Source of the DNA: an uncultured Candidatus Saccharibacteria bacterium
GTDB taxonomy: Bacteria > Patescibacteriota > Minisyncoccia > Phycocordibacterales > Zambryskibacteraceae
NCBI GenBank assembly: GCA_964642835.1
Contig: CAZXQA010000001.1
Coordinates: 268,831 to 323,386 of the forward strand
Length of the DNA stretch: 54,556 nucleotides
Reading direction: 5' to 3'
Shown: in pieces, positions 1,723-50,296 of the stretch
Layout: each line of letters opens with the position of its first letter
How positions within the stretch are numbered: position 1 is the first letter of the stretch
Position numbers and translations under genes: made by a program
Notes under the pieces: model-generated
Told to the model about the DNA's origin: nothing
Databases searched by the model: none
The model's input: only the letters and a program-made list of their open reading frames with translations

Positions 1723-2115
1723 ATGAATATAGCAGAAACTATTAGCTTTGACAAGGAAGGGGAGGCTGCGCCAGGAGGAGCCCGGGGCCTTATCCGGAAG
1801 CTCTTCCTCTCCCTCCTCATCTGCCTCGTGGCCGCTCTTTCCTTTGGTCTTGGCCGCCTCTCAGGGCAGGGAAGAGGGGAGCCGGTGCGGGTCGAGTATG
1901 ATCCCACCCTCTCGGCAGCGGCTGCGGCCGCCTCGGCGCCTGCGCTACAGAGTAGTAACGGAGCGGTGGTAGGCTCGAAAAGCGGCTCCAAGTACCATTA
2001 CCTCACCTGTCCGGGGGCTAAACAGATCAAAGAAGCCAACAAAATCACGTTCTCGTCTAAGGAAGCCGCCGAAGCCGCTGGATACACCCTGGCAGCCAAC
2101 TGCAAGGCCCCATAA
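1723..2115 (+). CDS. membrane-anchored protein with C-terminal small Cys/His (Ada-like metal-binding type) motif
   Basis: It has an N-terminal TM helix (LFLSLLICLVAALSFGLG) and an Ala-rich linker. The C-terminal motif is KYHYLTCPG...ITFSSKEAAEAAGYTLAANC. Confidence 0.65.
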   Translation: MNIAETISFDKEGEAAPGGARGLIRKLFLSLLICLVAALSFGLGRLSGQGRGEPVRVEYDPTLSAAAAAASAPALQSSNGAVVGSKSGSKYHYLTCPGAKQIKEANKITFSSKEAAEAAGYTLAANCKAP

Positions 2116-2162
2116 ATATGGCTCAACAGAGCCATTCTATTAAACTCGACCACAAATAGTCC

Positions 2163-2236: not shown

Positions 2237-2788
2237 TTGACCCTTACCGGTCACACCGAATCCGGACACAGCCACCTAAGATTAAAAGTTTATCCCACCG
2301 TTATTCTTCAGTTATCTACCATTAGCCTTCTGATGAGCCTTTCTTCGAGTGCGATGGCCGTCATGCCTGCCGCTACCGGCACCACGACCGCTGACGCTCC
2401 GATGAAGGTGGCAATCCTCCCTAAGGAGATTGTATCCGAAGACTATCAGCCGATTACTGACCCTGACAACGTCGAGAGGTTCCTCAAGGACTACTTTGCC
2501 GATATCCCGCTCATGACGAAGATCGCCAAGTGTGAGTCCCACAACCGTCACTACGACTCCACCGGAGCAGTGCTGAAGGGTGAGAAGACCCCGCTCGACC
2601 GCGGCGTCATGCAGATCAACCTGTACTATCACGGGGAGACTGCCAAGAAGCTCGGGATAGACTTGAACACTATCGACGGTAACGTGGCCTACGCCCGCTA
2701 CCTCTATGAGAAATCAGGTGCCCAGCCTTGGATGTCCTCTTCGCCTTGTTGGTCTAAGTTCGCTTCCCCGGAGGTTGCCAAGAGGTAA
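2237..2788 (+). CDS. secreted lysozyme-like/transglycosylase-domain protein
   Basis: The TTG start lies 7 nt after AGGAG. The N-terminus is hydrophobic and signal-like. CESHNRHYD...RGVMQINLYYH resembles the catalytic region of SLT/lysozyme-like domains. Confidence 0.7.
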   Translation: MTLTGHTESGHSHLRLKVYPTVILQLSTISLLMSLSSSAMAVMPAATGTTTADAPMKVAILPKEIVSEDYQPITDPDNVERFLKDYFADIPLMTKIAKCESHNRHYDSTGAVLKGEKTPLDRGVMQINLYYHGETAKKLGIDLNTIDGNVAYARYLYEKSGAQPWMSSSPCWSKFASPEVAKR

Positions 2789-2795
2789 TCTCGAC

Positions 2796-2832
2796 ACAAA
2801 CCCCGCCCTCACCGGCGGGGTTTGTTGTATTT
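2796..2832 (+). terminator. intrinsic terminator
   Basis: The acaaaccccgcc...ggcggggtttgt hairpin is followed by tgtattt. Confidence 0.75.
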
Positions 2833-2888
2833 CAATACGAAGGGAGGTGCTACAGTATATTGAGACTCGTTTCTAGGAAAGGGGAGAT

Positions 2889-3161
2889 ATGAATTACGAT
2901 GATCTCGTTCCGACGGTACGCCGAAGCGACATCCGACCCGAATATATCTGGTCGGCGAGCGAGGTGGTGAGCAAAATCATCCCGGGCAAGCGGGTGCAGA
3001 ACAAGCAGAGTGGGCGCCACGCTCGCGTGGTCGAATTCGTCGACGATCGGAAGATTTGGGTACGCGTTGTCATGCAACGTCGCCAGAACTCTCCTCGCAA
3101 GCATCTGCGCGCCGTCAAAACTACCTGGCGGATCGAGAACATCCGACCCCTGAATCCCTAG
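2889..3161 (+). CDS. hypothetical small protein
   Basis: 90-aa ORF with a GGAG 6 nt upstream of the ATG and an intrinsic terminator directly downstream. Confidence 0.6.
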   Translation: MNYDDLVPTVRRSDIRPEYIWSASEVVSKIIPGKRVQNKQSGRHARVVEFVDDRKIWVRVVMQRRQNSPRKHLRAVKTTWRIENIRPLNP

Positions 3162-3175
3162 CGTTCCACACCTGT

Positions 3176-3210
3176 GCGCCGCAACCGATTTCTCGGTTGC
3201 GGCGCTTTTC
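3176..3210 (+). terminator. intrinsic terminator
   Basis: gcgccgcaaccga-tttc-tcggttgcggcgc (13-bp stem) is followed by ttttc. Confidence 0.8.
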
Positions 3211-3224
3211 ATTTCTATCTATAT

Positions 3225-3262
3225 AAATAAAAAGGGTCGCTCTGCGTGGAGCAAAGCGACCC
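3225..3262 (-). terminator. intrinsic terminator of the integrase gene
   Basis: On the minus strand, gggtcgct...agcgaccc is followed by tttttattt. Confidence 0.65.
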
Positions 3263-3414
3263 GCCACCCGGAAAACATTTCAGGGCATTGCGTACAAGGA
3301 AGCGTCCTTCCCCCTGAGCCGAGCAGCGGCCAACTGTTTTGCCTCGTAAGCAAGTGGGGTTTGGCCAGAACGACCCACCAGTCATTCCATAGTAAACCTG
3401 AAAGGAAAGGAGAG

Positions 3415-4383
3415 CTAGTCCTTGAGAGGATGGAAGTCCTTATGCGTCTTCTCGGCGTATTTGTCCGAGGCGTGGACGTAGCGGGTGGTCGTGTCGAGAG
3501 ACTCATGGCCCAGGAGGATCTGGATCGCAGCCGGGTTCGCGCCTTGCTCGGCTAAGTACGTGGCGAAGCCGTGACGCAGGGAGTGCGCTGAAGTCGGCAC
3601 GTTAATGCCCAGAAGCTCGCGATACTTCTTGATCTTCATCTGGAGATAGTTAGGGGAGATGTGTTTGTTCTTCTCCTTCATATTGAGACCCATTTCCGGA
3701 ATAAAGAGGTAAGGGAAGTCGTCTGCCCTCGCCTTCAAGTAATTGTCGATATGCTTCTTGGCACGCTCGGTGAGGTAGATAAAGCGCTGCTTCTTCCCCT
3801 TACCCTGGATAAAGATTCGCCCCGTCTTGTCGAGCTGAGCCCGTTTAAGATTGATGAGTTCCGAAATACGCATCCCAGAAGCAAACAACGTCTCAAGCAT
3901 GGCGCGGTTCCTGAGCGCCGTTAATTTATTTTTCTCAAACTGCATCGGAGACTCAATGAGCTTCTGGAGTTCGTTCAATTCCGCCACCTGGCCATGTTTC
4001 TTACCCATACGAAGAAGTTTTACCGAGCCAGGCACCACAGGCACGGGCTGGTCCATGTCGATGAGGTATGTGAGATAGCGTCGGAGAGAGGTGAGCGTGC
4101 GGTTAATAGAACCACTCGATAGATCTTTCTCCGCCTGCTTACCCTTCGCGGTTTTGCGGTCGCTCGAATTGAGATATGCCTTAAATTGCTCAACTGTGCG
4201 CTTCGTCATATCTTCAAACTTCATATCCACTTCCTTGCTTAAGAAATATGCCAGAGTTTCGAGATCGCGCTCATAGTTATAGAGTGTCTCCTTGGAATAA
4301 TTATTTGCCTGAATGAACAAGAGGAAATCATCGATAAGCGGCAAAGGGCCCGTGTTTTCAGAAACTTTTTTAACGTTATACAT
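3415..4383 (-). CDS. tyrosine recombinase/integrase, XerC/XerD family
   Basis: It has an N-terminal core-binding-type domain. The C-terminal catalytic box is GMRISEL...HSLRHGFATYL...LGHESLDTTTRYVH (R..H-x-x-R..Y). Confidence 0.9.
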   Translation of the reverse strand: MYNVKKVSENTGPLPLIDDFLLFIQANNYSKETLYNYERDLETLAYFLSKEVDMKFEDMTKRTVEQFKAYLNSSDRKTAKGKQAEKDLSSGSINRTLTSLRRYLTYLIDMDQPVPVVPGSVKLLRMGKKHGQVAELNELQKLIESPMQFEKNKLTALRNRAMLETLFASGMRISELINLKRAQLDKTGRIFIQGKGKKQRFIYLTERAKKHIDNYLKARADDFPYLFIPEMGLNMKEKNKHISPNYLQMKIKKYRELLGINVPTSAHSLRHGFATYLAEQGANPAAIQILLGHESLDTTTRYVHASDKYAEKTHKDFHPLKD

Positions 4384-4444
4384 AGAGTATGGAGACGTGT
4401 TGATTATACCAGCGGAACAGATGCGGAGTGGTTACAGGAGCTAT

Positions 4445-4473
4445 TTGACTTTTTATTATAAATGTGCTAATAT
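4445..4473 (+). promoter_or_regulatory. sigma-70-like promoter (TTGACT-17-TAATAT with TGn)
   Basis: TTGACT lies at 4445-4450 and TAATAT at 4468-4473 preceded by tgc. AGGAGGG follows, then ATG at 4492. Confidence 0.65.
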
Positions 4474-4491
4474 CCATATAGGAGGGAATAG

Positions 4492-4956
4492 ATGAAACGA
4501 GTTCTGAGTTTAAGTATTTGCGTGATCATGTTGACCGCTGGCTTGGCTGCTCACGCAGATCGGAAAATTGAAATGCCGAGCTTCGTCCAGTCCGCCATCG
4601 ACTCAATTAACAAAAAGACTCGGGTGCGGAAGATCAATTCGGTCACCATGTTTGAACACCGCACCGGTGAGCTCGCGACGAGCTACTATGGCGACCTCGT
4701 CATCGACTGCGACGCCAAGCTCCGGGCCATCACGAGCTTCGTGTTCGGAGGCGGCCAAGATACAAGCAAACTGGCAAACTTCATGGACAAGAGCTCAACA
4801 GATGAGCAGTTGCGGGCCGTAGCTGCCTTCATCACCCAGGGAGCGATGAGTTGCGATGGGCGAGTGCCGCAACGCTTTGTACGGGTTCAATTAGACCCGA
4901 GCAACTCGTTCACGTTCACACAAGTATCGGTGGACCGTTTTGAGATTCTCAAGTAA
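4492..4956 (+). CDS. secreted hypothetical protein
   Basis: It has a signal peptide (MKRVLSLSICVIMLTAGLAAHA), a strong RBS, and a hairpin plus T-run downstream (about 4960-5008). Confidence 0.7.
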   Translation: MKRVLSLSICVIMLTAGLAAHADRKIEMPSFVQSAIDSINKKTRVRKINSVTMFEHRTGELATSYYGDLVIDCDAKLRAITSFVFGGGQDTSKLANFMDKSSTDEQLRAVAAFITQGAMSCDGRVPQRFVRVQLDPSNSFTFTQVSVDRFEILK

Positions 4957-5444
4957 CAGAGCTAGTGGAGGAGCGGGCAATCATTGCCACTCAACCACTA
5001 GCTTTTTCATTTTGTAAGAAGAATTCGAAATCATAAAGAGGAGAGAGTGCAATGAGAAAGGGGTGAGGAAAGAAATCTTTTTAGCTTCAGCTTTGTGGAT
5101 ACCTAACTGAGTATAATATCTCTAATACTCACTATTATAGCAGGAAGAGGCCGGGTGCCAAGGCTTATGTGTGGATATCTGGTTCTTGAGCCTTTTCCAA
5201 ATAACTAACTTCCCTGTCCCAAAATCTCTCTATTATTTCTAAAAATATTTCTCCCCCACTTCTCTCCAATCACTCAAAAATTAATTGCCAGAAATACCAC
5301 TAAGCGCCACTCCCCCGTTTTTTCGGGTCTCAGCAGGGGAGTCGCAAAGAAATTTTGAATTTGATAAGGTACTGGCAGAAATACAAGTTCCCTACCCCAT
5401 CTTCCAAACCCGTAACCCAGGCCACGTGGCCCAAGGAGTAGCAT

Positions 5445-6143
5445 ATGACGTTCACAGAAAGAATTCACGCTCGATTCGGCAAGGGCCAGTTCACGTGCGT
5501 CTCACTTCCTGAGGTGAGACATGCTACAGAAGAAGCTGTGGCAAAAAACATACGAGAAACAAAAGATCTCGTGGCCGCCTATTTGATCGCCGATCCACAA
5601 GCACTCATGCTGGCACATATCATCGCCCCCGAGGTGCCAGTCGTTACAAAGTTCGAGGACAAATGGAGCGACGCAGTGATCGTAAGCCTGTATGACTATG
5701 AAGGCTCGCCCGACGACACAATGGTCTTCGTGAACTGCCGTACGAAGGGTAGCGGCTACGCCGATGCATTCCAGACAACCTCTGTTCTCATCACCCCGGA
5801 CTCACCCTCACACATGCATCGAGAGGAACCAGGATTCGAACCTCTCTATGTGCGAGTGGCACGAGGAGTTGCCATGATGAACGAGGTGTCGGCGTTAGGC
5901 CTCGTGGTAAGTGCGGGGTGTAGCGAGGAAGAAATGGGGCTCATCAGAACAGAAGCGCCGAACGTGATGACGCTCATTACCGGAGCGGTAACTCACCCCG
6001 CTATCGAGACATCGGTCAGGATCTTTGGAGTGCACTGTCTCATCAACATTCCCGATTACAACTTTCGCGGAAATGGCACGAGATGGCTCACAGACATCAA
6101 CAAGTCGATCAACAAGGCTCTCATCCCAACAGCAAAGGCCTAG
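5445..6143 (+). CDS. hypothetical protein (weak resemblance to an OMP-decarboxylase-like TIM-barrel layout, not supported)
   Basis: 232-aa ORF with a GGAG upstream of the ATG and a terminator downstream. No firm motif. Confidence 0.6.
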   Translation: MTFTERIHARFGKGQFTCVSLPEVRHATEEAVAKNIRETKDLVAAYLIADPQALMLAHIIAPEVPVVTKFEDKWSDAVIVSLYDYEGSPDDTMVFVNCRTKGSGYADAFQTTSVLITPDSPSHMHREEPGFEPLYVRVARGVAMMNEVSALGLVVSAGCSEEEMGLIRTEAPNVMTLITGAVTHPAIETSVRIFGVHCLINIPDYNFRGNGTRWLTDINKSINKALIPTAKA

Positions 6144-6157
6144 CAAGCAAGGAATCA

Positions 6158-6191
6158 AACGGTGCAAGGATCATCCTCGCACCGTTTTTTA
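6158..6191 (+). terminator. intrinsic terminator
   Basis: The aacggtgc...gcaccgtt hairpin is followed by tttttt. Confidence 0.75.
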
Positions 6192-6306
6192 GTCCAACAA
6201 ACTACTCCACCATTTAAAGGTCCAGTGCATGAGGAGATATACTGGCGCGTAGATAGGCAGAAGGATAAAGAACAGGAGCACCTTGATGGGGCGCGGCAAC
6301 TTCATC

Positions 6307-6501
6307 TTAGTGGATATAAGACCAGACGCTCACAAGTAAGTTCTTCAACCACACGAGAATATCCTTGGCGTATTGGAGAGCCGACTTCCCTGCTGGGGTC
6401 TCTGCCGCCTCAAAAGCCGACCAGTCAAAGAAATATTTGAGGGCGACGAGAGCGATAAGGATAAGGACGGCCAAGGTGACGAAGCCGCGATTTTTATTCA
6501 T
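6307..6501 (-). CDS. small membrane protein
   Basis: 64 aa with a TM helix (GFVTLAVLILIALVALKYFF). It lies 12 nt downstream of the M23 peptidase gene on the same strand. Confidence 0.55.
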   Translation of the reverse strand: MNKNRGFVTLAVLILIALVALKYFFDWSAFEAAETPAGKSALQYAKDILVWLKNLLVSVWSYIH

Positions 6502-6513
6502 AGGGAAAGTCTA

Positions 6514-7803
6514 TTAGAGCGACGGAAGGTATGCAAGCGGGTCGAGATACGCCTTCACATCGACGATCGGGACCACCACCTGCTTACAGCCACGACTCTC
6601 GACGAACTGGCGGATCTCCATACCCTGCGTGGCGAAGAGGCCAACGTGGAGATGTGGGCCGGTTGAGTAACCGGAGCCGAAGACTCCTGGCGTGCCGCCC
6701 GAGTAAGCGACGGTTTGCCCCGCGGTCACGCGAGCGCCCTTCTGCACCGAGAGCGATGAGAGGTGTCCGTAGACGCTTGAGAGGCCGTTATCATAGGAAA
6801 TGACGATCCAGCGGCCATAGGAGCCGCATCCCTTCTGCTCGTCCGTATTACCAGTGCCAGCTACCACGCCCGCTCCCATGGCCTTCACGGCCGTGCCCTG
6901 CGAGGCGCGGAAGTCTGTGCCGTTGTGACTACCCGAGGCGTAGATGCGCGTGTTCACGCCCGAGACCGCGCCGAAGTTGTTGGTGACATAGACACTCGCC
7001 AAAGGCCACGAGAGCACGCCGTGACGCGGAGCAGCGACGAGCGACGAGTCAATGTTGAGGTCGAGGCTCGACTCAAGACGGAAGAGATCTGCTTCGAACT
7101 GCTTCTGACGAGCAACGTTCTCGGCGAGGAGGGCTTGGTACGCCGCCTCCTTGCTCTTGGTCTCCGCGAGGAGTTGTTCCTTGGCCTTCTGACTCTCTTC
7201 GACGGCACTCTTCTGACTCGAGAGATCCTTGGCGAGCGCGGCGGCCTGGTCGCGTGCCTTTTCCTTGGCGGCTTTCTGGAGCGAGAGTGCCGTCTTCGTG
7301 TCACGTAGTTCCGCCACTTCTTCATCGAGAGAGTCACTCAAGCCCGCGAGCTGCGCGGTGTCTTGCCACGCATCAGAGAAATTCGCGGAGGCGAGGAGGT
7401 CGAGGACGATAGGCCTCGAGTCGCTCTGGAAGAGCGAGCGGAGCGCCTCGCCGACCGCCGAACGATGCAAGGTAATTTGCCGCTCGGTCTCGCTCACATT
7501 CTGCCCCAGGAGCTTAATGTTGAGATCGGTCGAAGCGATCTTTGACTGAGTAACCTTAATATCGGCGGCGAGCTTCTTCTTCGAAGCATCGAGGCTCTTC
7601 ACGGCCGTACCCAAGGTCTTCCCTTCCGCGGTGATCTTGTCGAGTTCGGCCTGGAGACGGGCCTGTTCGGCCACCAAGGCATCACGATCACGACGAATAC
7701 TCTCGATCTGGGAGTTGAGGCTCGAACTCGTCGCCGCCCGGCTTACGAGCGGGAGCGCAACAAGGAGAATGAGCAGAAACGCAGCATGTTTAAAGCGCGG
7801 CAT
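6514..7803 (-). CDS. M23 family metallopeptidase with N-terminal coiled coil (EnvC-like murein hydrolase)
   Basis: It has a signal peptide and a long coiled-coil region. The C-terminal motif HNGTDF...GPHLH is the M23/LytM signature. Confidence 0.9.
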   Translation of the reverse strand: MPRFKHAAFLLILLVALPLVSRAATSSSLNSQIESIRRDRDALVAEQARLQAELDKITAEGKTLGTAVKSLDASKKKLAADIKVTQSKIASTDLNIKLLGQNVSETERQITLHRSAVGEALRSLFQSDSRPIVLDLLASANFSDAWQDTAQLAGLSDSLDEEVAELRDTKTALSLQKAAKEKARDQAAALAKDLSSQKSAVEESQKAKEQLLAETKSKEAAYQALLAENVARQKQFEADLFRLESSLDLNIDSSLVAAPRHGVLSWPLASVYVTNNFGAVSGVNTRIYASGSHNGTDFRASQGTAVKAMGAGVVAGTGNTDEQKGCGSYGRWIVISYDNGLSSVYGHLSSLSVQKGARVTAGQTVAYSGGTPGVFGSGYSTGPHLHVGLFATQGMEIRQFVESRGCKQVVVPIVDVKAYLDPLAYLPSL

Positions 7804-9046
7804 TCTTAAGCACCATTATAGCGTGTTCGAGACGGTTTTGGGACTTTTCCTTGCCTAAAATATCCAGCATAGTCATGGGGTCAGGGCTCGCCTGCGCACC
7901 GGTAAGTGAGTAGCGTAACGGCCAAAGCACATTCCCCCGCCCGAACGACTGTTCAGTCGGGCGGGCCTTCCCGCTATCGGCATAAGCCATGATTGTATTT
8001 TTCAGCACTTCGCCTTCTTCTGATTTAATCATTTCCAAAACTTTTTCGAGGTGAAGAATCGTATTTTCTTTCGTCTCCTTTTTCCACACAATACTGGCCG
8101 CGTCGAGTGCGGGCTCCCCTACCATGTAGGGCTCATGCTCGATTGATTTCAAAACAAGCTTTCTCTGCTCAGCGGCGGGAAGGAGTTTGATGTGCTCCTT
8201 ATTCACCCAGTCGAGTTTCTTCTGGTCAAAGATAGCGCCGCCTTTCTGAATCTTTTTCAAATCGAACTGCTTGATGAGTTCTTCCATCGTGAAGATTTCC
8301 TGCTCGGTACCTGGGTTCCAGCCAAGAAGAGCAAGGTAGTTCAAAACGGCTCCTGGCAAATAGCCTTGCTCGCGATATTCCGTCACCGCCGTCGCACCAT
8401 GACGCTTCGAGAGCTTGGAGCGGTCCGGAGCGAGGATGAGTGGAATGTGCGCGTAGACAGGGCGCTCATAACCCAAGGCTTCTTGGATGAGAATTTGTCG
8501 AGGTGTATTCGAAATATGATCCTCCCCGCGGATAACGTGCGTCACTCCCATGGCATGGTCGTCGAAAACGACTGCCAGGTGGTACAACGGTTCTTCCAAA
8601 CTCTTGGCAATGACGAAGTCGCCAAGCTCCGTGGTGTCGAAGGAAATATCTCCACGCACAACGTCGGTGAAGGTAATCACCTGGCCTGGGTTCTTTAATC
8701 TAATCACCTCCACTTCCCTACTCGGGTCATCTTTAGCGGGCTCTTTAGAAACATAAGCTTTACCATTTGAGATAAGTTCTCCCAGCGCTTCGCGATAAAG
8801 CGTGGTGCGTTCAGATTGGCGGAAAGGACCTTCGTCATACGTAATACCGAGCCATTGTAAGCTCTCGACGATATTGGCTTCATACTCCCCTTTCGAACGC
8901 TCCTTGTCGGTGTCCTCGAGACGGAAAACAATTTTGCCATTATTCTGCTTGGCGAAGAGATAGTTAAAGAGCATCGTGCGCGCTGTGCCGATGTGGAGAT
9001 TGCCGGTTGGAGACGGTGGAAATCTGACGATCACTTTTTCTGACAT
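7790..9046 (-). CDS. gltX: glutamate--tRNA ligase (compact, 418 aa)
   Basis: RFPPSPTGNLHIGTARTMLFNYLFAK is the HIGH region and KLSKRHG is the KMSKS-type motif. Confidence 0.92.
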   Translation of the reverse strand: MSEKVIVRFPPSPTGNLHIGTARTMLFNYLFAKQNNGKIVFRLEDTDKERSKGEYEANIVESLQWLGITYDEGPFRQSERTTLYREALGELISNGKAYVSKEPAKDDPSREVEVIRLKNPGQVITFTDVVRGDISFDTTELGDFVIAKSLEEPLYHLAVVFDDHAMGVTHVIRGEDHISNTPRQILIQEALGYERPVYAHIPLILAPDRSKLSKRHGATAVTEYREQGYLPGAVLNYLALLGWNPGTEQEIFTMEELIKQFDLKKIQKGGAIFDQKKLDWVNKEHIKLLPAAEQRKLVLKSIEHEPYMVGEPALDAASIVWKKETKENTILHLEKVLEMIKSEEGEVLKNTIMAYADSGKARPTEQSFGRGNVLWPLRYSLTGAQASPDPMTMLDILGKEKSQNRLEHAIMVLKNAAL

Positions 9047-41677: not shown

Positions 41678-43837
41678 CTACCCGGTGACAAAATTGACCA
41701 ATTTCCCCGGCACCCAGAGGGCCTTCGTAACCGTTTTACCTTCCAACCACTTCCCCATCTCAGGGAGGGCCCGGGCCATCTCCAAGGCCTCAGCCTCTCC
41801 TATACTTGACGAAGCAGAGAACTTACTTCTTACTTTGCCATCTACTTGGACGACAATCAAGGCCGTGGCGGAAACGAGCTTCGCCCTGTCATACGTCGGC
41901 CAAGGAGTAGTGTGAATAGAGTCGGCGTGCCCCAGCGCTTGCCAGAGTTCTTCGACCACGTGCGGCGCGAAAGGCGCGAGAAGAGTGAGAAGGGTTTCGT
42001 ATTCTTCCTCACCTATGACGGTCTGCTTCTCGAGCGCGTTCGTGTAAATCATGAGACTCGAGACTGCCGTGTTGAAGCCGAGCGTTTCAATGTCTTCGGA
42101 GACCTTCTGAATCGTCTGATGCATGAGAGAGACATCGGTAACTGGCGTGCCAGCGACCACCTTTTCTCGCAACTTCCAAACTCGTTCGATAAACCGGCGC
42201 GGCCCCACGAGCGAACTCTCGTTCCAGGCAATAGCTTGCTCGAACGGACCCATGAACATCTCATAGAGACGGAGCGTGTCGGCACCGAAGCGCTCGACGA
42301 TGGCGTCTGGGTTCACGACATTCCCTTTTGACTTACTCATCTTCTCCCCACCCTCCGCGAGGATAAGTCCGTGAGAGGTGCGCTTCTTGTACGGCTCAGG
42401 GGTCGGCACCAATCCAATATCAAAGAGGAACTTATTCCAGAAGCGCGAGTAGAGCAGGTGAAGCACCGTGTGTTCCATGCCGCCGTTGTACCAGTCGACG
42501 GGCATCCAATACTTCAACTGTTCCGGCGAAGCGAAGGCCTCGTCGTTATGTACATCAGCATAGCGGAGGAAGTACCACGAAGAACCTGCCCAGTTAGGCA
42601 TCGTATCGGTCTCTCGCTTGGCCGCACCACCACAGGTAGGGCACGTCGTGTTAACCCAGTCGAAAATAGCGGCAAGTGGCGACTCTCCGTTGTCGGTTGG
42701 CTGATAATTTTCTACCTTAGGCAATTCGAGAGGCAGGTCCTTTTCTGAAAGCGGCACTATTCCGCACTTCTCACAGTGCACGACGGGAATCGGCTCACCC
42801 CAATAACGCTGACGCGAGAAGACCCAGTCGCGCAGTTTGTACTTCGTCACCTTTTCTCCGAATTCTTCAACCGAAGCTTTAGGATACCCTTCGATAATCG
42901 GCAGGTCGTGCTTTAAGGCAAAGGCGTGGTCACGCTCGTCATCCGCTGGGACGCCCATAATGGCCCCGGTGCCGTAGTCAGAGAGAACGTAGTCGGCTTC
43001 CCACACTGGAATCTGCGCTTTCGTCGCTGGGTTCGTCACATATCTACCCGTGAACTTATCTTCCTTACCAGCAACCGCGAGGAAGGTAGCGCCGTGGATT
43101 GTGTCAGGACGAGTGGTGAAGACTTCGAGGTCGTCAAACTTTATAAGTGCTCCCTCAGACTTCCCGATCCAATTCCTCTGCTGCGTCTTCACGCGCTCAG
43201 GGTAATCGACTGTTTCCAAATCATTCAAAAGACGTTCGGCATACGCCGTGATCCTCAACATCCATTGCTCCTTCTCCTTCTGCTCGACCGGCGTACCGCA
43301 GCGCTCGCAGCAACCATCGACCACTTCTTCGTTGGCGAGACCAATCTTGTCCTTGGGGCACCAGTTGATCGGGATCTTCGCCTTGTACGCTAACCCATGC
43401 TCAAGGAATTTGAGGAAGAGCCACTGCGTCCACTTGTAGTACCTGGGGTCAGTCGTGTTCACTTCTCGTGACCAGTCGAAAGAAATGCCCAGAGCCTTAA
43501 GCTGACGGCGGAAATTATCAGTATTGTCTTGAGTGACGACTCTCGGGTCTTTGCCGGTCTTAATAGCATAGTTCTCCGTCGGCAAACCGAAGGCGTCCCA
43601 CCCGATGGGATAGAGCACGTTGTAACCTTCGCGACGACGCTTGCGCGATACCACGTCGAGCGCGGCGTAACTTCTCACGTGACCGGTATGAAGACCGTCT
43701 CCCGAGGGATACGGGAATTCAATAAGCGCGTAGTACTTAGGTTTAGAAGAATTCTCCAGGGCGCGATACAAGCCTTCACTCTCCCACTTCTCCTGCCACT
43801 TGCGTTCTATTTGTTTCGGGTCGTAATCCTGAGACAT
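41678..43837 (-). CDS. leuS: leucine--tRNA ligase (compact, 719 aa)
   Basis: FPYPSGDGLHTGHVRSY is the HIGH region and KMSKSKGN is present. The CP1 editing marks TTRPDTIHGATF and GTGAIMGVPADDERD are also present. Confidence 0.95.
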   Translation of the reverse strand: MSQDYDPKQIERKWQEKWESEGLYRALENSSKPKYYALIEFPYPSGDGLHTGHVRSYAALDVVSRKRRREGYNVLYPIGWDAFGLPTENYAIKTGKDPRVVTQDNTDNFRRQLKALGISFDWSREVNTTDPRYYKWTQWLFLKFLEHGLAYKAKIPINWCPKDKIGLANEEVVDGCCERCGTPVEQKEKEQWMLRITAYAERLLNDLETVDYPERVKTQQRNWIGKSEGALIKFDDLEVFTTRPDTIHGATFLAVAGKEDKFTGRYVTNPATKAQIPVWEADYVLSDYGTGAIMGVPADDERDHAFALKHDLPIIEGYPKASVEEFGEKVTKYKLRDWVFSRQRYWGEPIPVVHCEKCGIVPLSEKDLPLELPKVENYQPTDNGESPLAAIFDWVNTTCPTCGGAAKRETDTMPNWAGSSWYFLRYADVHNDEAFASPEQLKYWMPVDWYNGGMEHTVLHLLYSRFWNKFLFDIGLVPTPEPYKKRTSHGLILAEGGEKMSKSKGNVVNPDAIVERFGADTLRLYEMFMGPFEQAIAWNESSLVGPRRFIERVWKLREKVVAGTPVTDVSLMHQTIQKVSEDIETLGFNTAVSSLMIYTNALEKQTVIGEEEYETLLTLLAPFAPHVVEELWQALGHADSIHTTPWPTYDRAKLVSATALIVVQVDGKVRSKFSASSSIGEAEALEMARALPEMGKWLEGKTVTKALWVPGKLVNFVTG

Positions 43838-44398
43838 TTAAGCTGAGACATTGTTGAACTTTTTCACCGCGATCCAACACAAGAGACCAAGAGCGACGGC
43901 AAGGATAAGGAGCTTGATGACATCGTTCGCCGAACCCCAGTAGCGCATCGAAGCAATGATGAAGGAGAGGACCCCCGCGAGAGAGAGACCGCTCGCAATA
44001 ACACCGTTCTTCGCAAAGAAGTTACCAGCGGCGACAGAGAGAGCCCCGAGTATGACGAGGATCACAAAGACGTTGCGATCATAATCCTGACGCGAGGTGT
44101 CATAGGTCTGACGGCAGGTGTATTGCACGTCGCAGTAGCCGGCTGGAGCAGACTTCGCACCCTCACCGTAGTACATATTCTCATTCCACTGTCCTCCTTG
44201 AGCCACGCATGCGGCCTGGGTTCCAGGAACATTTACCACCTGAGAAGTCGGGCAAAATGCTTCGAGCTCCGGAGACTTATAGACAAGCGAGATGGCGTAG
44301 TTGAAGAAGAGATTGAGGACGATCATGATGCCAATAATCGTGGACCACTTACCAATGCGCTGTGATGTATTCATAGGGAGTAGTATACGCCGTTTCAA
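43838..44398 (-). CDS. membrane protein, function unknown
   Basis: TM helices flank a Cys-containing loop (CPTSQ...ACVAQGG...YCDVQYTC). Its stop abuts the leuS start. The true start may be the ATG at 44374. Confidence 0.65.
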   Translation of the reverse strand: MKRRILLPMNTSQRIGKWSTIIGIMIVLNLFFNYAISLVYKSPELEAFCPTSQVVNVPGTQAACVAQGGQWNENMYYGEGAKSAPAGYCDVQYTCRQTYDTSRQDYDRNVFVILVILGALSVAAGNFFAKNGVIASGLSLAGVLSFIIASMRYWGSANDVIKLLILAVALGLLCWIAVKKFNNVSA

Positions 44399-44457
44399 CC
44401 GCCTTTGACAAATCGCTCTCCAAACTGTAGAAAGAACTCAGACAAAGGAGAACTACC

Positions 44458-45033
44458 TTGGAAAACCGTGCCTATCAGAACGTCTTGAGCGCCTTCAAAC
44501 TCATCGTCGATCTTAACCTCTTTGCAGCTGAAGGGATGAACGCTCTCATTGAACGTGTACTCGCCTCGTCGCCGACACGCGAACAACTTTGGGAAATTTT
44601 CCAGATTATCGGACCGTGGTACGAGGAGCATGGTCCGTCTGAAAGCTGGGGGTTTTTCGACAAACAGGAGTTCGACGCCGTGCCGTACTACAATCTGTAC
44701 ATACGCTGGTCGGAACTTTCGAAAGTCGAGCTCAAGAGTGCTGTCGACTTCCCTTCCGCCCTTTCTCTCACCCGCAGCATGCTCGCAACACGGGAAAGGT
44801 CTGAGGCACGGTATCTCCTTCTCGATTTTGCCTCGACTCCCGAACACGCCCTCATTTTCATCGGCCTCAAGCAAAACCTCGGTGAGGGCTGCAGCGAAAA
44901 AGAAGAGAGGAAGCTTCTCAAACTAGCGACGACTGACGAAGTGCGGCTAGCACTCATCAACTTCGGCAACGAACGCAGATGGAACGTACAGGACAAAACC
45001 ATGATGCGTCTCGCAGAAATGATTGGGACATAA
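44458..45033 (+). CDS. hypothetical protein
   Basis: The TTG start lies 7 nt after AAGGAG, and a strong terminator follows directly. I prefer it to the antisense ORF 44395..44874. Confidence 0.6.
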   Translation: MENRAYQNVLSAFKLIVDLNLFAAEGMNALIERVLASSPTREQLWEIFQIIGPWYEEHGPSESWGFFDKQEFDAVPYYNLYIRWSELSKVELKSAVDFPSALSLTRSMLATRERSEARYLLLDFASTPEHALIFIGLKQNLGEGCSEKEERKLLKLATTDEVRLALINFGNERRWNVQDKTMMRLAEMIGT

Positions 45034-45040
45034 CCCGAAA

Positions 45041-45074
45041 GCGCGCGACCCTTAGGTCGCGCGCATATTTTGTT
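45041..45074. terminator. intrinsic terminator between convergent genes
   Basis: gcgcgcgacc-ctta-ggtcgcgcgc is followed by atattttgttt. Confidence 0.8.
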
Positions 45075-45083
45075 TGAGGAAAC

Positions 45084-45950
45084 CTACTTCCCTGTCACGA
45101 TGTACTGTAACCGTCGCCCGATCTCGGTGAGGATTTGCTCACCTTTTTCGCCGGGGATACTGACGATCACCGCCACGATGCAAGAATCACTGCCGTCGAA
45201 ACAGGTGACGCCACAATCTCCCACGACACCAACGTGAGGATTACCTGGATCTGTCCACCACCCTGTCTTGTGATAAAACGGCGTGGAAGATGGCAACCCA
45301 GCCCGCAGCTTACCGTTATCCCGCTGTTTCTGGAGAAGCCGAGACAATCTTTGCGATGAGTCAACTCCAAGAAGTGTGCCATTGTCGACCAGACAAAGGA
45401 ACTCTGCAAGGTGCCGAGTATATCCTTGGACCATTGGAGCGTCTTGATACGGAAGATCTTCGAGCTTGCGGCTGAGAAACTTCCTGGTAAGAGCACTTTT
45501 CTCCCAACCATGTTTACGAAGAAGCTTGTTGACCTCCTCACGACCCACGAAGTCGATAAGGACATTAGCTGCCGTGTTATCGCTCCGGGTGATCATGAGA
45601 TCGAGAAGAACTTCGAGGGTCGAGAAGGCGCCTCCTTCAAGCAACGGTCGCGTATCACTAGCCACTTCCGGCTTCTCATCGACGGCATTTTTCTTCACCA
45701 CATAGATTCGTCTGTCCCAGCGAGTGCGCGTTCGCTTCATGTACTCAAGAAGTGCCGCGGCGATGTAGAGCTTGGTGAGTGAAGCGGGGTAAATGGGCGT
45801 CAGATCACGCCAACCCGCATAGGCATAACCTCTCACATTGCTTTTCGCAATCGAAAGATGGATCGACGCTGCACCACCCAATTCAGAAACTACGTTTCTT
45901 ACTCGCGTTGTCATCTCCGGGTCTTGCGAGAATTTCATTCTCTGTACCAC
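45084..45950 (-). CDS. class A beta-lactamase-like serine hydrolase
   Basis: SLTK (SxxK), SDN and HKTG (KTG) occur in class A order and spacing. Confidence 0.8.
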   Translation of the reverse strand: MVQRMKFSQDPEMTTRVRNVVSELGGAASIHLSIAKSNVRGYAYAGWRDLTPIYPASLTKLYIAAALLEYMKRTRTRWDRRIYVVKKNAVDEKPEVASDTRPLLEGGAFSTLEVLLDLMITRSDNTAANVLIDFVGREEVNKLLRKHGWEKSALTRKFLSRKLEDLPYQDAPMVQGYTRHLAEFLCLVDNGTLLGVDSSQRLSRLLQKQRDNGKLRAGLPSSTPFYHKTGWWTDPGNPHVGVVGDCGVTCFDGSDSCIVAVIVSIPGEKGEQILTEIGRRLQYIVTGK

Positions 45951-45997
45951 AAGATTCCTCCTGGAAAGGTTCTGGCTCTGGGCCCACCCTAACGTAT

Positions 45998-47008
45998 TTA
46001 AACAAGGAACTCAATCACATCCCCATCTTGGACGACATACTCCTTCCCTTCCGTTCTCACCCAGCCCTTAGACTTCGCGGCGGCGTAGGAGCCGGCTTCG
46101 AGGAGCTTGTCGCAGGCAATCACTTCCGCGCGGATGAAACGAGCTTCGAAGTCGGTGTGGATTGAGCGGCCGGCATACGGCGCCTTGGCATCACGCTTCG
46201 TCGTCCAGGCACGTGTCTCGGCTTCGCCTGTCGTCAGGAAGGTGATGAGGTCGAGAAGTTTGTAGCTCTCCGTAATTAAATTATCCAAGCCCTCGCCGAA
46301 GACCGGATCGAGCTTCACATACGGTCCGGGGATCTTCGAAGCAATCTCGTCCGCCAAGTTCTCTGCCGCGGCAGAGGTGTTCAATATATAGAGCATCGGC
46401 TTCATGGTAAGGAGGTGAAGGTTGCCGACGAGTTTCTTCTCTTCCTCGGTGAGCACTGCTTCGTTCGCGAGCTTCCCTTCCTTGAGCAGAGCTTCCACTT
46501 TCTGAAGAGCGGCTTCTTCGGCGGCCGCTTCCTTCTTGCCGGTCTTCGCTTCACGAGCGACACCGCCCAAGCGCTTAGAGACCGTTTCCATATCGGCAAG
46601 AATAAGTTCGAGGTTAATGACCGCGATGTCTGAGAGTGGGTCTACCGTGCCAGCCACGTGGATGACGTCATCGTCGCGGAAGGTGCGAACCATGTGCGCG
46701 ATGGCATCTACTTCGCGGATGTTCTGGAGGAATTTATTGCCCAGACCTTCTCCCTCGGAAGCACCCTTCACGAGACCGGCAATGTCGACGAATTCGACCA
46801 CCGCGGGGACCGTCTTCTTCGACTGACTCATGGCGGAGAGTTTCTCCAAGCGCTCGTCAGGCACCGGGACGATACCGACGGAAGGATCGATCGTACAGAA
46901 GGGGTAATTCTCGGCCGGAACGCTCTTCTTGGTGAGCGTATTAAAGAGCGTGGACTTCCCCACGTTCGGCAGACCGACAATGCCGATACTTAGTGCAGAA
47001 TAAGACAT
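45998..47008 (-). CDS. ychF: redox-regulated/ribosome-binding ATPase YchF
   Basis: [19 protein letters not shown] is the G1 motif. The protein continues [14 protein letters not shown] and ends with a TGS-like C-terminus (DGDVIEF). Confidence 0.92.
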
Positions 47009-47054
47009 TACCTTCGTTGATTATTGGTATATAACCAGTGACTTTTAATTCCTT

Positions 47055-47297
47055 TTGATTACCTACGACCTTTTCAACAGTGTTCAATACTATCTCCCGT
47101 TTCTCACTAAAACTCAAGTTCGAAAGTGGGACACCCTCAAGGTCTTACTGATGGTGCTGTGGGAAACAAAGGGTATTGATAATAAAAAATATGTTGCCTT
47201 ATCTGTGCCAATGGAAGAAGTTGGAAAAATGCTTGGAGGATGGAACGGGCAGGTCGCTTCAAAACAAAACTCTCTGCCCTTGAGCAGAGAGAAATGA
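47055..47297 (+). CDS. Avd-like four-helix-bundle protein, apparently N-terminally short (80 aa)
   Basis: The C-terminal TKGIDNKKYVALSVPMEEVGKMLGGW matches, from memory, the conserved ...IDNKKY...EIGKMLGGW end of DGR accessory (Avd)/four-helix-bundle proteins. An in-frame TAA at 47046 prevents upstream extension. Confidence 0.5.
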   Translation: MITYDLFNSVQYYLPFLTKTQVRKWDTLKVLLMVLWETKGIDNKKYVALSVPMEEVGKMLGGWNGQVASKQNSLPLSREK

Positions 47298-47303
47298 AGA
47301 GAG

Positions 47304-47437
47304 TTGCGAAGCGAGGAACACGAAACCGTTCTCACGATTCCACCTGTTGTCAGCGTTGCCGTTGTAGGCGTTCAGCCAGCGACCATTGTCGTTGCGATTG
47401 ATGCCGAGAACGTTCGGGTTGCCGTCCGAATCGGTTT
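47304..47437 (-). repeat. DGR template repeat (TR), sense on minus strand
   Basis: It aligns gap-free to 47785-47918. All 22 core mismatches are T on the + strand here, which is A on the - strand. In the VR frame it reads 11 Asn codons (8 AAC, 3 AAT). Confidence 0.85.
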
Positions 47438-47692
47438 GTATAAAGCACCTTCAGTGCCATTGCCCACAAGAGAGCCTCCGCGCTCAATCCACAGGTTGTA
47501 TCGAATTCCGCATCGTAATGCGATAGTGCTCTATACCAAGTATCTTCATTTTTTTGAAGTGTCTGCATACACCACCCTACCCTTGTCCTTAGACAAGGAT
47601 AATCTCGATGCATGGATACTGGGGTCGGTAGCGGGGAACCTTAATCCCCCACATATTCACCTACTGCCATTGCAGATTATATCAAAACGAAA

Positions 47693-47723
47693 GGCCCGGA
47701 CACCCATTTTTGGATGCCGGGCC
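47693..47723 (-). terminator. intrinsic terminator of the DGR target gene
   Basis: On the minus strand, the ggcccggcatcc-aaaaat-gggtgtccgggcc hairpin is followed by tttcgtttt. Confidence 0.65.
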
Positions 47724-47778
47724 CGAAGGGCAAAGGTCAAAGGATCTGAAGAAGATCCAAGTGACCAAGTCCTAAGTA

Positions 47779-48453
47779 CTAGTCTTGCGGGACGAGGAAC
47801 ACGAAACCGAGCTCACGACCCCACCTGTCGTCAGCGAAGCCGCTGCAGGCGCTCAGCCAGCGACCACGGCCGTCGCGATCGATGCCGAGAACGTCCGGGC
47901 CGCCGCCCGAACCGGTGATGGGCTCGTGCATGACGATGAGCCACCACAAACCCATCGCTTCGAGATCGTCGTCGGAGACCATCTCCCGGAGGAGCGGTGC
48001 GACTTCGACCGGAGGCGTCAGGTATCCGCGCTTCTTGGCTTCCTCGCGGATCTTCGAGGTGAGGCGATCGTTGTCTTCGAACTCGTCGCCCTTGATCACG
48101 ACCAGCTTGTACGTCTTGCCGTTGGTGGAGACGAACTTGTCGCTCCGGAGCAACTGCTTGGCGTAGTCGCCGACGTTGTAGTTGGCGGTCGTGAGCGATT
48201 CGATGAACTGCTCGCCGGTGCGGCCGTCCGTGGTCACGTGCCGAACGATCATGTTGCTGATCATCTCGACGCGCTTGCGGAAGACCGAGTAGAGCTCCGG
48301 CCAGATGTCGTTGTTGCCGAGCACCTGCTGGACTGCGTCCGTCGGAAGCTCCGCGCGGAAGCGCTTGAGAATCGAACGGAACAGCTCTCCGGCCTTGTCG
48401 ATCTGGCCGTCGGTCATCTGCGTATCCACGGATGGGGTCACGGTCTTTGCCAT
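47779..48453 (-). CDS. DGR variable (target) protein, 224 aa, VR at extreme C-terminus
   Basis: AAAGGAGG lies 8 nt upstream of the ATG. The gene is GC-rich. The last ~45 codons are the VR. No signal peptide or TM segment is visible. Confidence 0.85.
   Translation of the reverse strand: MAKTVTPSVDTQMTDGQIDKAGELFRSILKRFRAELPTDAVQQVLGNNDIWPELYSVFRKRVEMISNMIVRHVTTDGRTGEQFIESLTTANYNVGDYAKQLLRSDKFVSTNGKTYKLVVIKGDEFEDNDRLTSKIREEAKKRGYLTPPVEVAPLLREMVSDDDLEAMGLWWLIVMHEPITGSGGGPDVLGIDRDGRGRWLSACSGFADDRWGRELGFVFLVPQD
47785..47918 (-). repeat. DGR variable repeat (VR)
   Basis: It is the counterpart of TR at an offset of 481 nt. Substitutions occur only opposite TR adenines, except for 3 nt at the 3' end (47790-47792, IMH-like). 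Confidence 0.85.
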
Positions 48454-48493
48454 GGCGTCATCCTCCTTTGAGGTGAGCTAGACCACCGGAATG

Positions 48494-48545
48494 GTAGTCA
48501 TAGCCAGAAAGTACCGAGAGTTCGGAGCCTTTTGGCTATGACTAC
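48494..48545 (-). promoter_or_regulatory. 12-bp perfect-stem hairpin in the predicted 5' UTR of the DGR target gene
   Basis: gtagtcatagcc (48494-48505) pairs with ggctatgactac (48534-48545) around a 28-nt loop. The loop contains a smaller ccga/tcgg stem. Confidence 0.5.
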
Positions 48546-48578
48546 ACGCAAGAATAAGTAAAAGAACTAGCTAGGTTA

Positions 48579-48607
48579 AGCATAGCACCTTTGGCGTGTT
48601 TTGTCAA
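48579..48607 (-). promoter_or_regulatory. sigma-70-like promoter for the DGR target gene (TTGACA-17-TATGCT on minus strand)
   Basis: The reverse complement of 48602-48607 is TTGACA and that of 48579-48584 is TATGCT, with a 17-nt spacer. Confidence 0.55.
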
Positions 48608-49021
48608 GTTCATGAATTTCCAAAAAATTTTATAGGATATGGGGAAATTAAATTTCCTTTTGAAATCTGGGGGTATGGGGGTGGGTATCTGAAAATTAGA
48701 TCTTTATGGCTTACTTATACTAACGTCCCGTATAAAGGATACCGGGGGTGAGTTCGGGGGGGGTGTATGCCCCTTACCCCTGAAAACTATAGTGTGCGCC
48801 CCTGTGGGGTAAATAGGAGCTATCTGATAGGCACTACCCAGCGAGGAGGAGGGAGTTTGATAGTGAATGAGAACGGAATGACCTTAGGGCTATGTTCTTT
48901 TGTGTTCAGGCCATGCCAACAGACAATTTGGACATGGGGTTAGAATAGCGGAAAATTGCAATAAGGTACATGTGTGGTACATTTTCGGCAGAATTTGTAC
49001 CTACAACCAAGGGGGGTTAAC

Positions 49022-50296
49022 ATGTCTGACGCGTACCAGGAACTCAAGGACCGCGGCTTCATCAGGCAAGAAACGGCACCGGTGGATGTGCGCCATCTGG
49101 GCACTCACGAGCTCATCGAAACGCTTTCAGCGGAGAAAAGGCTCAAGAGCGGCCAGACGACGTTCTACGTCGGCTTCGATCCGACCTCGGACAGCCTTCA
49201 CGTCGGAAGCCTCATGCCCATCATGGCCATGATGCATCTCCAGCGCGCTGGACACATTCCGATCTGCATCATCGGCGGGGGCACGGCTCTCATCGGAGAT
49301 CCGAGCGGCAAGACGCAGATGCGGCAGATGCTCTCGGAAGAAGATATCGCTTCGAACGGCCGGGGCATCCTGGCACAGCTCGAGCAGTATCTCTCTTTCG
49401 AAAACGGCTCAGGCGTCTTCGTCAATAACGCCGAGTGGCTCACGAAGCTCAATTACATCGAGTTTCTGCGCGACATCGGCAAACACTTCCGCGTCAACGA
49501 AATGTTGCGCATGGAAGCATACAAGGCGCGGCTCGAACGCAATGAGGGACTTTCCTTCATCGAGTTCAACTACCAGCTCCTGCAGGCCTACGACTTTCTC
49601 GTCCTTTTCGAGAAGTACGGCTGCACGATCCAGATGGGCGGCGACGACCAGTGGGGCAATATCCTCGCCGGCATCGATCTCATCCGGAAAGTAAGGCAGA
49701 GTGCATCGCACGGCCTCACCTTTCCTCTTCTCACTACGGCCAGCGGCCAGAAGATGGGTAAGACCGAGACGGGCGCCGTCTGGCTCGATGCAGCGAAGAC
49801 CTCGCCGTACGAGTACTATCAGTTCTGGATCAACACGGACGACCGGGATGTGGAGAGATTCCTCAAATTCTTCACCTTCCTGCCGCTCGGAAACATTGCT
49901 GATCTCTGCGCTGAAGGAGGCAGCCTCTTGCGCCATGCGAAAGAGGTCCTCGCCTTCGAAGCCACGCAGATCACGCACGGTTACGACGCAGCCGTAGAAG
50001 CACGGGAATCTTCCGAACGCCTCTTCGCCTCCGGCGGAAGCGGTGCGGCGAATGTCCCCTCGCTCTCGCTCACCAAAAGCGAAGCGGATCTTCTGAAACT
50101 CACCGAGATCCTCGTGCGGACCGGCCTCAGCTCGTCGAAGTCGGAAGCCACCAAGCTCATCAAGAGCGGCGGCGTCTCCGTCGACAACGTAAAGGTCACG
50201 GACGAGAAAGTTTTCCTCTCAGAATTTCTGAAAGAGAAATCTTCGCTCCTCCTGAGGAAAGGCAAGAAAACCTACCACAGAGTCGATGTGGAATGA
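49022..50296 (+). CDS. tyrS: tyrosine--tRNA ligase
   Basis: The ATG at 49022 follows AAGGGGGG. GFDPTSDSLHVGSL is the HIGH-type motif and KMGKTE is the KMSKS-type motif. A C-terminal S4-like domain is present. The ORF track's GTG at 48974 is less likely. Confidence 0.93.
   Translation: MSDAYQELKDRGFIRQETAPVDVRHLGTHELIETLSAEKRLKSGQTTFYVGFDPTSDSLHVGSLMPIMAMMHLQRAGHIPICIIGGGTALIGDPSGKTQMRQMLSEEDIASNGRGILAQLEQYLSFENGSGVFVNNAEWLTKLNYIEFLRDIGKHFRVNEMLRMEAYKARLERNEGLSFIEFNYQLLQAYDFLVLFEKYGCTIQMGGDDQWGNILAGIDLIRKVRQSASHGLTFPLLTTASGQKMGKTETGAVWLDAAKTSPYEYYQFWINTDDRDVERFLKFFTFLPLGNIADLCAEGGSLLRHAKEVLAFEATQITHGYDAAVEARESSERLFASGGSGAANVPSLSLTKSEADLLKLTEILVRTGLSSSKSEATKLIKSGGVSVDNVKVTDEKVFLSEFLKEKSSLLLRKGKKTYHRVDVE

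Follow-up and report, generated by a model that had tools for sequence, protein, structure and literature searches.

A probable diversity-generating retroelement remnant with an intact template repeat and no reverse transcriptase between ychF and tyrS of a Candidatus Saccharibacteria genome

We analysed a stretch of 54,556 nucleotides (nt) from an uncultured Candidatus Saccharibacteria bacterium (contig CAZXQA010000001.1, positions 268,831 to 323,386), hereafter the window, in which an island of about 2 kb between ychF and tyrS (47009-49021) carries parts of a diversity-generating retroelement (DGR). These are a target gene that ends in a variable repeat (VR), a template repeat (TR) and a piece of the accessory gene avd, with no reverse transcriptase (RT) gene beside them. 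Related loci are cited by our own handles (L001 and so on). The features of the cassette and of its ychF side, in window coordinates, are:

45998-47008, minus strand: ychF, 336 amino acids (aa), intact, N-terminus MSYSALSIG... (Pfam YchF-GTPase_C and MMR_HSR1; same N-terminus in L099 and L116)
46941-47126, minus strand: 3' remnant of a large serine recombinase gene, about 50-60 codons, overlapping the ychF start in another frame (tblastn)
47124-47126, no strand: rearrangement or deletion junction, where avd homology ends and recombinase 3'-end homology begins
47124-47297, plus strand: avd remnant, the C-terminal 57 codons (RKWDTLKV...SREK*) of an Avd of about 117 aa (partial profile matches; alignment with the full Avd of L004, L008, L011, L013 and L097)
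47260-47291, minus strand: hairpin and U-run right after the TR, within the avd C-terminal codons (terminator scan)
47312-47435, minus strand: TR, from comparison with the VR; an IMH*-like end follows (CTT CGCAA, against TCC CGCAA in the VR; IMH, initiation of mutagenic homing)
47436-47667, minus strand: structured RNA of about 230 nt, starting with GCAGTAGG, directly 5' of the TR, intact (RNAalifold, covariance model)
47676-47684, minus strand: putative extended -10 promoter TGaTATAAT, about 8 nt before the RNA start GCAGTAGG, read from the sequence
47685-47730, minus strand: terminator-like hairpin and U-run past the target gene, with equivalents in L004, L008, L011 and L013; presumed terminator
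47735-47766, minus strand: inverted repeat, 13 nt beyond the target stop codon, kept in L004, L008, L011 and L013
47779-48453, minus strand: DGR target gene, 224 aa, with the VR at 47793-47916; a CPR-wide family without Pfam domain (CPR, Candidate Phyla Radiation)
48494-48607, minus strand: predicted strong target promoter TTGACA-17-TATGCT with TG in front (48607->48579) and 5' leader hairpin (48545->48494) (promoter scan, sequence)

The TR (47435->47312) and the VR (47916->47793), both read on the minus strand, aligned over 124 nt with 20 mismatches. All 20 fell on the 31 adenines of the TR (15 A>G, 3 A>T and 2 A>C), for which the probability under random placement is 1.4e-15, and none of the 93 non-adenine positions differed between the repeats, in agreement with the lack of drift reported in the preliminary description of this DNA. 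In the reading frame of the target, the TR holds eight AAC and three AAT codons, and codon positions 1 and 2 take nearly all of the mismatches. The VR forms the 3' end of the 224-aa open reading frame (ORF) 48453->47779, with 12 nt between its end and the stop codon. The block GGTTTCGTGTTCCTCG is common to TR and VR, and beyond it the sequences part (TCC in the one, CTT in the other). The island thus has the adenine-specific repeat pair of a DGR and a VR at the 3' end of a coding target whose TR adenines occupy codon positions 1 and 2; the conserved VR 3' end with the inverted repeat downstream of it also appears IMH-like. No further VR copy was present within the window, and a search with the adenine-masked TR/VR pattern returned only the VR of L001 among genome contigs, with zero matches in viral and zero in metagenome contigs.

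The target has 181 homologues, all from the CPR, which are hypervariable exactly at the TR-adenine codons. The protein had no match to a Pfam domain. Its AlphaFold model has a mean confidence (pLDDT, predicted local distance difference test) of 75.9; Foldseek comparison of the model with the PDB gave nothing at E <= 0.001, the C-type lectin domain appearing only at rank 36 (E 7.6), and a profile search against PDB sequences found no match. Neither search thus gave significant support for placing the target among the C-type lectins. An antisense ORF of 228 aa spans the GC-rich target (62.5% GC) in the window (47785-48471, plus strand), in L011 (1938-2648) and in L012 (2765-3451), and the gene callers of L011 and L012 chose it instead of the target.

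The absence of an RT was established over the whole 54.6-kb window. A six-frame scan found no RT-like motifs, the best tblastn match to four RTs from the same DGR clade had an E-value of 0.9, and Pfam annotation of 40 window ORFs returned housekeeping genes only, with no RVT match. In the relatives a DGR-clade RT adjoins avd; the TR of the window is encoded without one. An RT disrupted by a frameshift within 47438-47780 or 48454-49021 was considered and rejected because tblastn with the clade RTs found no RT remnant there; the first interval holds the structured RNA, the promoter and the terminator, and the second the target leader and a non-coding region, the X region described below. The called 80-aa ORF on the plus strand (47055-47297) consists of the 57 avd codons and 22 unrelated N-terminal residues. 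It matched Pfam bAvd at positions 65-104 of 107 (23.8 bits) and NCBIfam DivGenRetAVD at positions 64-102 of 104 (28.2 bits), in both cases under the family cut-off, and its homology to full Avd proteins begins at about residue 61 of 117, so that the intact four-helix bundle of about 110-130 aa is lacking. The preliminary description was therefore right both in finding no RT in cis and in taking the Avd-like ORF, on the strand opposite to the TR, for a C-terminal fragment. The 57 codons contain no stop and no frameshift. Two counts gave an excess of 12-13 singleton changes in the window copy, and relaxed constraint was rejected as its cause since the excess disappeared in three-taxon relative-rate tests; the 6:6 split of synonymous and non-synonymous changes is uninformative. 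Because the RT and an intact Avd, two defining features of DGRs, are both missing, the locus is to be classed as a DGR remnant and not as a working DGR.

The RT is probably missing because of a rearrangement whose junction lies at 47124-47126. The blastn alignments of the window to L004, L013, L014, L015 and L097 all end at 47124. On the other side of the junction, residues 487-535 of the 535-aa recombinase of L035 (domains Resolvase, Recombinase and Zn_ribbon_recom) aligned by tblastn with 47126->46968 (43% identity, E 1.8e-8), and a peptide encoded upstream of ychF in L098 matched 47120->47010 at 62%. At the junction the middle of avd, in antisense, runs into the 3' tail of the recombinase gene, which has lost its catalytic and recombinase domains. 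No Pfam family matched the remnant; of a large serine recombinase (Resolvase, Recombinase and zinc ribbon) only the last ~50 codons are left, and the gene is dead. In L035 and in 18 other genomes (L099-L116), the latter mostly Saccharibacteria, the recombinase gene is intact and runs over the start of ychF, by about 30-45 nt in the 18, and the 5' end of the window ychF is of the type found wherever such an overlap occurs. The lost DNA would amount to at least ~2.7 kb by our estimate if the genes were adjacent, made up of half of avd (its 5' part), the RT and some 485 codons of the recombinase. The recombinase genes that overlap ychF are 56-74% identical between genomes (for example L107, 6615-9270), an unusually conserved pairing of a recombinase with a housekeeping gene.

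Most CPR DGRs (90%) have 'Architecture B3', TR-(avd)-RT (Wu et al. 2018, PMC5758913), and a Patescibacteria-only DGR clade 2, with targets without recognisable domains, was defined by Roux et al. 2021 (PMC8144416). We compared 80 RT loci from species-representative genomes, 75 of which have upstream sequence. In all 75, avd and the RT gene point away from each other, and the TR is situated past the 3' end of avd; L008, L009 and L011, for example, have avd head-to-head with the RT, and TR and target past the avd 3' end on the RT strand, and L012 has the same head-to-head avd-RT pair. The surviving parts of the window follow the B3 order target - TR - (avd, reverse strand) - RT. The layout had been called non-canonical, which was not borne out: B3 places avd, inverted, between TR and RT, as found in 75 of 75 loci, and, since this is standard in the clade, an avd convergent with the TR is expected and no anomaly. 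The window locus is thus a truncated member of the known CPR B3 clade. Four loci (L004, L013, L014 and L097) align with window 48608->47124 at 80-84% nucleotide identity and then run on into the N-terminal half of avd, and three of them (L013, L014 and L097) continue into an RT with the motifs GLPLGNLTSQ and YADD. The closest full RT is that of L097, which is 89% identical to the RT of L013.

Given this anatomy, the junction, the intact relatives and the lack of an RT in 54.6 kb, we consider it probable that the island is the remnant of a chromosomal CPR/Patescibacteria DGR that lost its RT by deletion or rearrangement and is now frozen. The native layout of that clade runs target(VR) -> terminator -> promoter -> structured RNA and TR -> terminator -> opposite-strand avd -> RT. 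Either a deletion or a comparable illegitimate recombination event, joined at 47124-47126, would have removed the 5' half of avd together with the whole RT and, in the same event, stripped the recombinase gene down to its last ~50 codons. The event would have spared the target, the elements by which it is recognised, and the whole of a TR RNA gene that apparently can still be transcribed. Mutagenised complementary DNA could not be made in the absence of RT and Avd, so that the cassette would be frozen on its own, and the present VR would be the last allele written before the loss. That there was a single loss event, and that the cassette is inactive at present, is what we infer from this arrangement. 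Several observations weigh on the other side. The presumed intact order RT - recombinase - ychF was not seen in any relative, which makes the ancestral arrangement a reconstruction, and the DGR of L035 sits on the opposite flank of ychF. The undecayed TR, the 230-nt RNA and the hairpin on the VR side would also be expected under selection for use in trans. Finally, the search for an RT on the 486,712-nt parent contig is a weak check, in which none of the best 120 of more than 7800 RT homologues (>=69% identity) lay on that contig.

The state of the TR region bears on these points. The surviving order on the minus strand is target promoter and leader, target, inverted repeat, terminator-like hairpin, -10 promoter, RNA, TR, and hairpin with U-run. 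The promoter TGaTATAAT was omitted by a simple sigma-70 scan because it has no -35 hexamer. RNAalifold on seven sequences folded the RNA with 77 pairs, 18 of them with compensatory changes. A covariance model built from the 3' half of the RNA scored the window copy at 137.7 bits, compared with 136-144 in intact DGRs, and matched 68 of the 69 RT loci with enough upstream sequence, on the RT strand and just 5' of the TR. Among 75 distinct sequences of this 3' half, 26 of 32 pairs showed compensatory changes, and 90.5% of cells were paired, against 72% after shuffling of columns and 33-54% when the partners were slid. The window therefore carries a clade-specific structured RNA 5' of the TR, a feature defined in this analysis. 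In L016-L095 the RNA precedes the avd 3' end by about 120-250 nt. No Rfam 15 family matched in the island at gathering thresholds or at E <= 10, and a known RNA family was rejected on this ground; no tRNA or tmRNA is present, and no description of an RNA 5' of the TR was found in the papers that could be searched. An 87-aa ORF at 47350-47613 (minus strand) was rejected as a gene, as it has no family match and its conservation is RNA-like, with compensatory pairs.

Within about 20 nt of the TR follows the hairpin with U-run at 47291->47260. It has compensatory variants in L004, L008 and L011, and a hairpin of differing sequence stands at the same place in L032; it probably terminates the TR RNA and, read from the opposite strand, avd as well. 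The TR thus appears to form its own transcription unit, made of promoter, 5' structured RNA, TR and terminator, which is presumably transcribed in the window. The 5' structured RNA may be the template-recognition domain of B3 DGRs. It had been proposed that the 3' flank of the TR, antisense to avd, would supply the RNA elements needed by an RT; this found no support, the terminator standing some 20 nt past the TR and the covarying RNA lying 5' of it.

A unit that brings its own promoter, 5' domain and terminator, and whose model score is like that of intact DGRs, could also be half of a split DGR, in which the TR unit is an autonomous non-coding RNA gene and an RT-Avd encoded elsewhere (in a second DGR, a plasmid or a phage) serves it in trans. 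The RNA 3' half is conserved clade-wide, so a paralogous RT-Avd could plausibly recognise the TR RNA. Some CPR contigs have two RT loci (MHTH01000005, L031), avd, TR and brt act in trans from a plasmid in the Bordetella phage system (PMC5758913), and decay of the window cassette is undetectable. We nevertheless regard this as unlikely. More than one DGR occurs in only about 10% of DGR-bearing complete genomes (PMC5758913), the parent 486.7-kb contig is absent from the 120 best RT homologues (a weak argument, as said above), and the RNA model matched once per fetched locus, bar the duplicated L014 contig, with no orphan TR unit. The VR is identical in the available assemblies and the sister genomes L005 and L001 have abandoned the system. 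If the reading in trans were true, the window would hold a naturally split DGR with template and enzyme unlinked, and the conserved 5' RNA domain, not a 3' spacer, would be the handle by which the CPR RT-Avd recognises its template. In any case the RT-less locus is a natural substrate for trans-complementation.

At this locus the sisters L005 and L001 keep only pyk, target and ychF, in that order. The target retains a VR-like 3' end, TR, avd and RT are absent, and no TR was found anywhere in the assembly of the L005/L001 metagenome-assembled genome. The VR of L005 and L001 is the same in two independent assemblies and is thus a fixed allele. DGR loss is a recurrent event at this locus. In L005 (1360-2170) and L001 (1-730) the loss runs from just past the stop codon (immediately after GGACTTG) and ends at a stretch of about 25 nt resembling the RT 3' end, fused to the ychF start.

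We then return to the preferred reading, the loss of the RT from a resident DGR, and to the integrity and age of the junction. The window ychF protein is recorded on four contigs, including a Logan contig and the 486,712-nt NCBI contig. The Logan contig (28.8 kb, SRR14271372, found in two samples) agrees with window 42998-50008 at every one of 7011 nt, the VR included. DGR loci often break assemblies, and L001/L002, L007, L013 and L097 end in or near the target or VR, so a chimeric or collapsed join made by the TR/VR repeat or by strain mixing, and hiding an RT, had to be considered. With the identical 7-kb sequence in an independent Logan assembly from two samples as well as in the 486.7-kb NCBI contig, with the junction 190 nt past the TR and away from the repeat, and with both of its sides homologous to real genes, such an artefact is very improbable.

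The same can be said of an ancient dead remnant that drifts neutrally. A truncated avd and an absent RT would suit it, but the repeats have zero non-adenine differences, all RNA helices are intact with a full model score, the 57 avd codons are free of stops and frameshifts, and three-taxon relative-rate tests on RNA domain, TR and avd remnant gave no sign of faster change in the window lineage; we give this reading hardly any credence. Zero changes over 186 sites taken as neutral would set a rough 95% upper bound of ~1.6% on the divergence since the last homing, a bound that becomes weaker under selection. The window TR carries a private T (AATGG; G in the other compared TRs and VRs, A in the L008 pair) that is also found in the window VR, and homing therefore took place after that substitution. 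Because decay is undetectable, the loss looks recent relative to the 16-25% divergence from the sampled relatives. The evidence thus sides with the preliminary description, which had argued from the clean TR/VR pair against an old remnant and had offered a very recent loss of the RT as one option; this loss can now be placed at 47124-47126.

The tyrS side of the island gives another view of its origin. Its features are:

48610-48917, minus strand: 'X region', non-coding, about 300 nt, with C-runs (homology to L097 and L011)
48918-48949, minus strand: displaced copy of the ychF 5' end (-14 to +19), beside tyrS (sequence match)
49022-50296, plus strand: tyrS, the right-hand border of the island (ORF and Pfam analysis)

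The stretch 48949->48913 is identical at 35 of 37 positions to the genuine ychF start of L005 and L001. In L097 the X region comes immediately after the RT stop; in L011 and, in part, in L004 it stands ahead of the target leader. Together, the ychF fragment and the X region look like the relic of an attachment site. The L097 RT stop also overlaps a ychF-like start of 9 codons (MSKTQIGMV*), and in L008, labelled Zambryskibacteria, a ychF pseudogene 72-82% identical to the window ychF follows the RT, which suggests that the cassette moved between CPR classes along with flanking ychF DNA. Genomes labelled Saccharibacteria and Zambryskibacteria share TRs at 90-97% and RNA domains at 81-95% identity. 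Because of the displaced ychF ends, the ychF pieces of L097 and L008 and the TR identity of 90-97% across labels, the DGR cassettes of this subclade are taken to be repeatedly linked to ychF 5' ends, and they move between CPR lineages. A more specific idea, a serine-integrase element with duplicated ychF 5' ends as its borders, is only half supported: the displaced ychF 5' copy is genuine, whereas the recombinase-ychF pair is conserved in 18 genomes without a ychF duplicate upstream within 8 kb, 11 such loci showed no flanking duplication, and the DGR of L035 sits across ychF from the recombinase. The ychF fragment and X region occupy 48610-48949 (minus strand) in the window, 1946-2300 in L097, 2820-3054 in L011 and 6283-6328 in L004. 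The L008 pseudogene (1496-2160, minus strand) retains residues 1-118 and 233-336, the middle being deleted.

This mobility lends itself to an account in which the RT was never here: a truncated piece of a DGR, running ychF 5' fragment - X - leader - target - TR unit - half avd, would have come by horizontal transfer and replaced the 5' part of the resident recombinase by illegitimate recombination. The cassette is indeed mosaic and mobile, with TR and RNA domain about 81-97% identical across the Saccharibacteria and Zambryskibacteria labels, the L008 pseudogene right after the RT has the similarity to the window ychF given above, the junction of ychF fragment and X region travels with the cassette in L004, L011 and L097, and the target matches L002 without a difference in its first 161 nt, against 84% in the flanks. 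Two illegitimate junctions are needed here instead of one, and we regard such an import as unlikely; in function it is equivalent to the loss of a resident RT, since it too leaves an RT-less, frozen cassette, and in the present data the two look alike. As to L002, the identical segment includes the ribosome-binding site (window 48317-48477, L002 4740-4900; flanking genes about 84%) and points to a recent exchange of the target 5' part or to strain mixing in co-assembly.

Compared with known systems, the window has its target, TR and inverted avd arranged and oriented as in the CPR B3 DGRs (PMC5758913) and clade 2 (PMC8144416), with which it also shares the families of Avd, TR and target, the small domainless target, and the AAC-rich TR with mismatches at adenines only. 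Unlike the CPR B3 DGRs, it has neither the RT nor the N-terminal half of Avd, which makes it a truncated, non-functional member. A comparable case is the DGR of Trichodesmium erythraeum IMS101 (Pfreundt et al. 2014, PMC4143802), which has an inactivated RT, frozen VRs and a TR RNA that continues to be expressed. Both have an inactivation on the RT side, a TR driven by an independent promoter (that of the window being read from the sequence) and frozen VRs (probably so in the window), with intact versions in related wild populations. The Trichodesmium RT, however, is still present and carries a single stop codon, whereas that of the window is deleted with half of avd; the Trichodesmium DGR also belongs to another lineage and architecture and has 12 targets. 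With the DGR of Bordetella phage BPP-1 (mtd-avd-TR-brt) the window has in common the adenine-specific flow from TR to VR, the VR at the target 3' end, a conserved 3' end of IMH type and, shortly past the VR, an inverted repeat, the one at 47766->47735 matching in position the hairpin downstream of the Bordetella phage IMH (role from PMC5758913). In BPP-1, avd and TR share a strand, with avd upstream, and a spacer 3' of the TR is part of the functional RNA; in the window, by contrast, a terminator-like hairpin follows the TR at once and the conserved structured RNA lies 5' of it. A TR that appears to be its own unit, with a strongly covarying RNA of ~230 nt on its 5' side and a terminator right behind it, sets this very large DGR clade apart from the Bordetella phage model and provides a concrete candidate RNA for RT-Avd recognition.

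The apparent anomaly of an RT-less DGR with a strange layout is thereby removed, the locus being a known CPR architecture cut by one rearrangement. Related genomes present stages of DGR decay, namely intact (L004, L013, L097), RT and avd lost with the TR kept (the window), and the target alone (L005, L001). The finding at this locus is in itself modest and ordinary; more is gained from the clade-wide RNA 5' of the TR and from the staged series of decay.

Some minor observations concern the relatives. The 3.5-kb contig of L012 carries a single TR-like copy (2765-2896) with 23 A, an intermediate number, that abuts avd at the 3' end of the apparent target ORF, and no separate TR was found on this contig. 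L011 was considered as a circular contig and rejected, as it has no terminal overlap. Behind its RT, at 2365-8211, L097 has HTH_17/MerR-like, GmrSD_N, XRE-type HTH and Toprim-domain genes, a context that looks like a mobile element or defence island. The leader hairpin of the target, about 50 nt (inverted repeat 48494-48545), recurs in L004, L007 and L011, where the stem sequence differs and the inverted repeat is kept, and is more weakly conserved before the DGR targets of L020, L031, L032, L043, L070 and L090; it could be a candidate cis-regulatory element.

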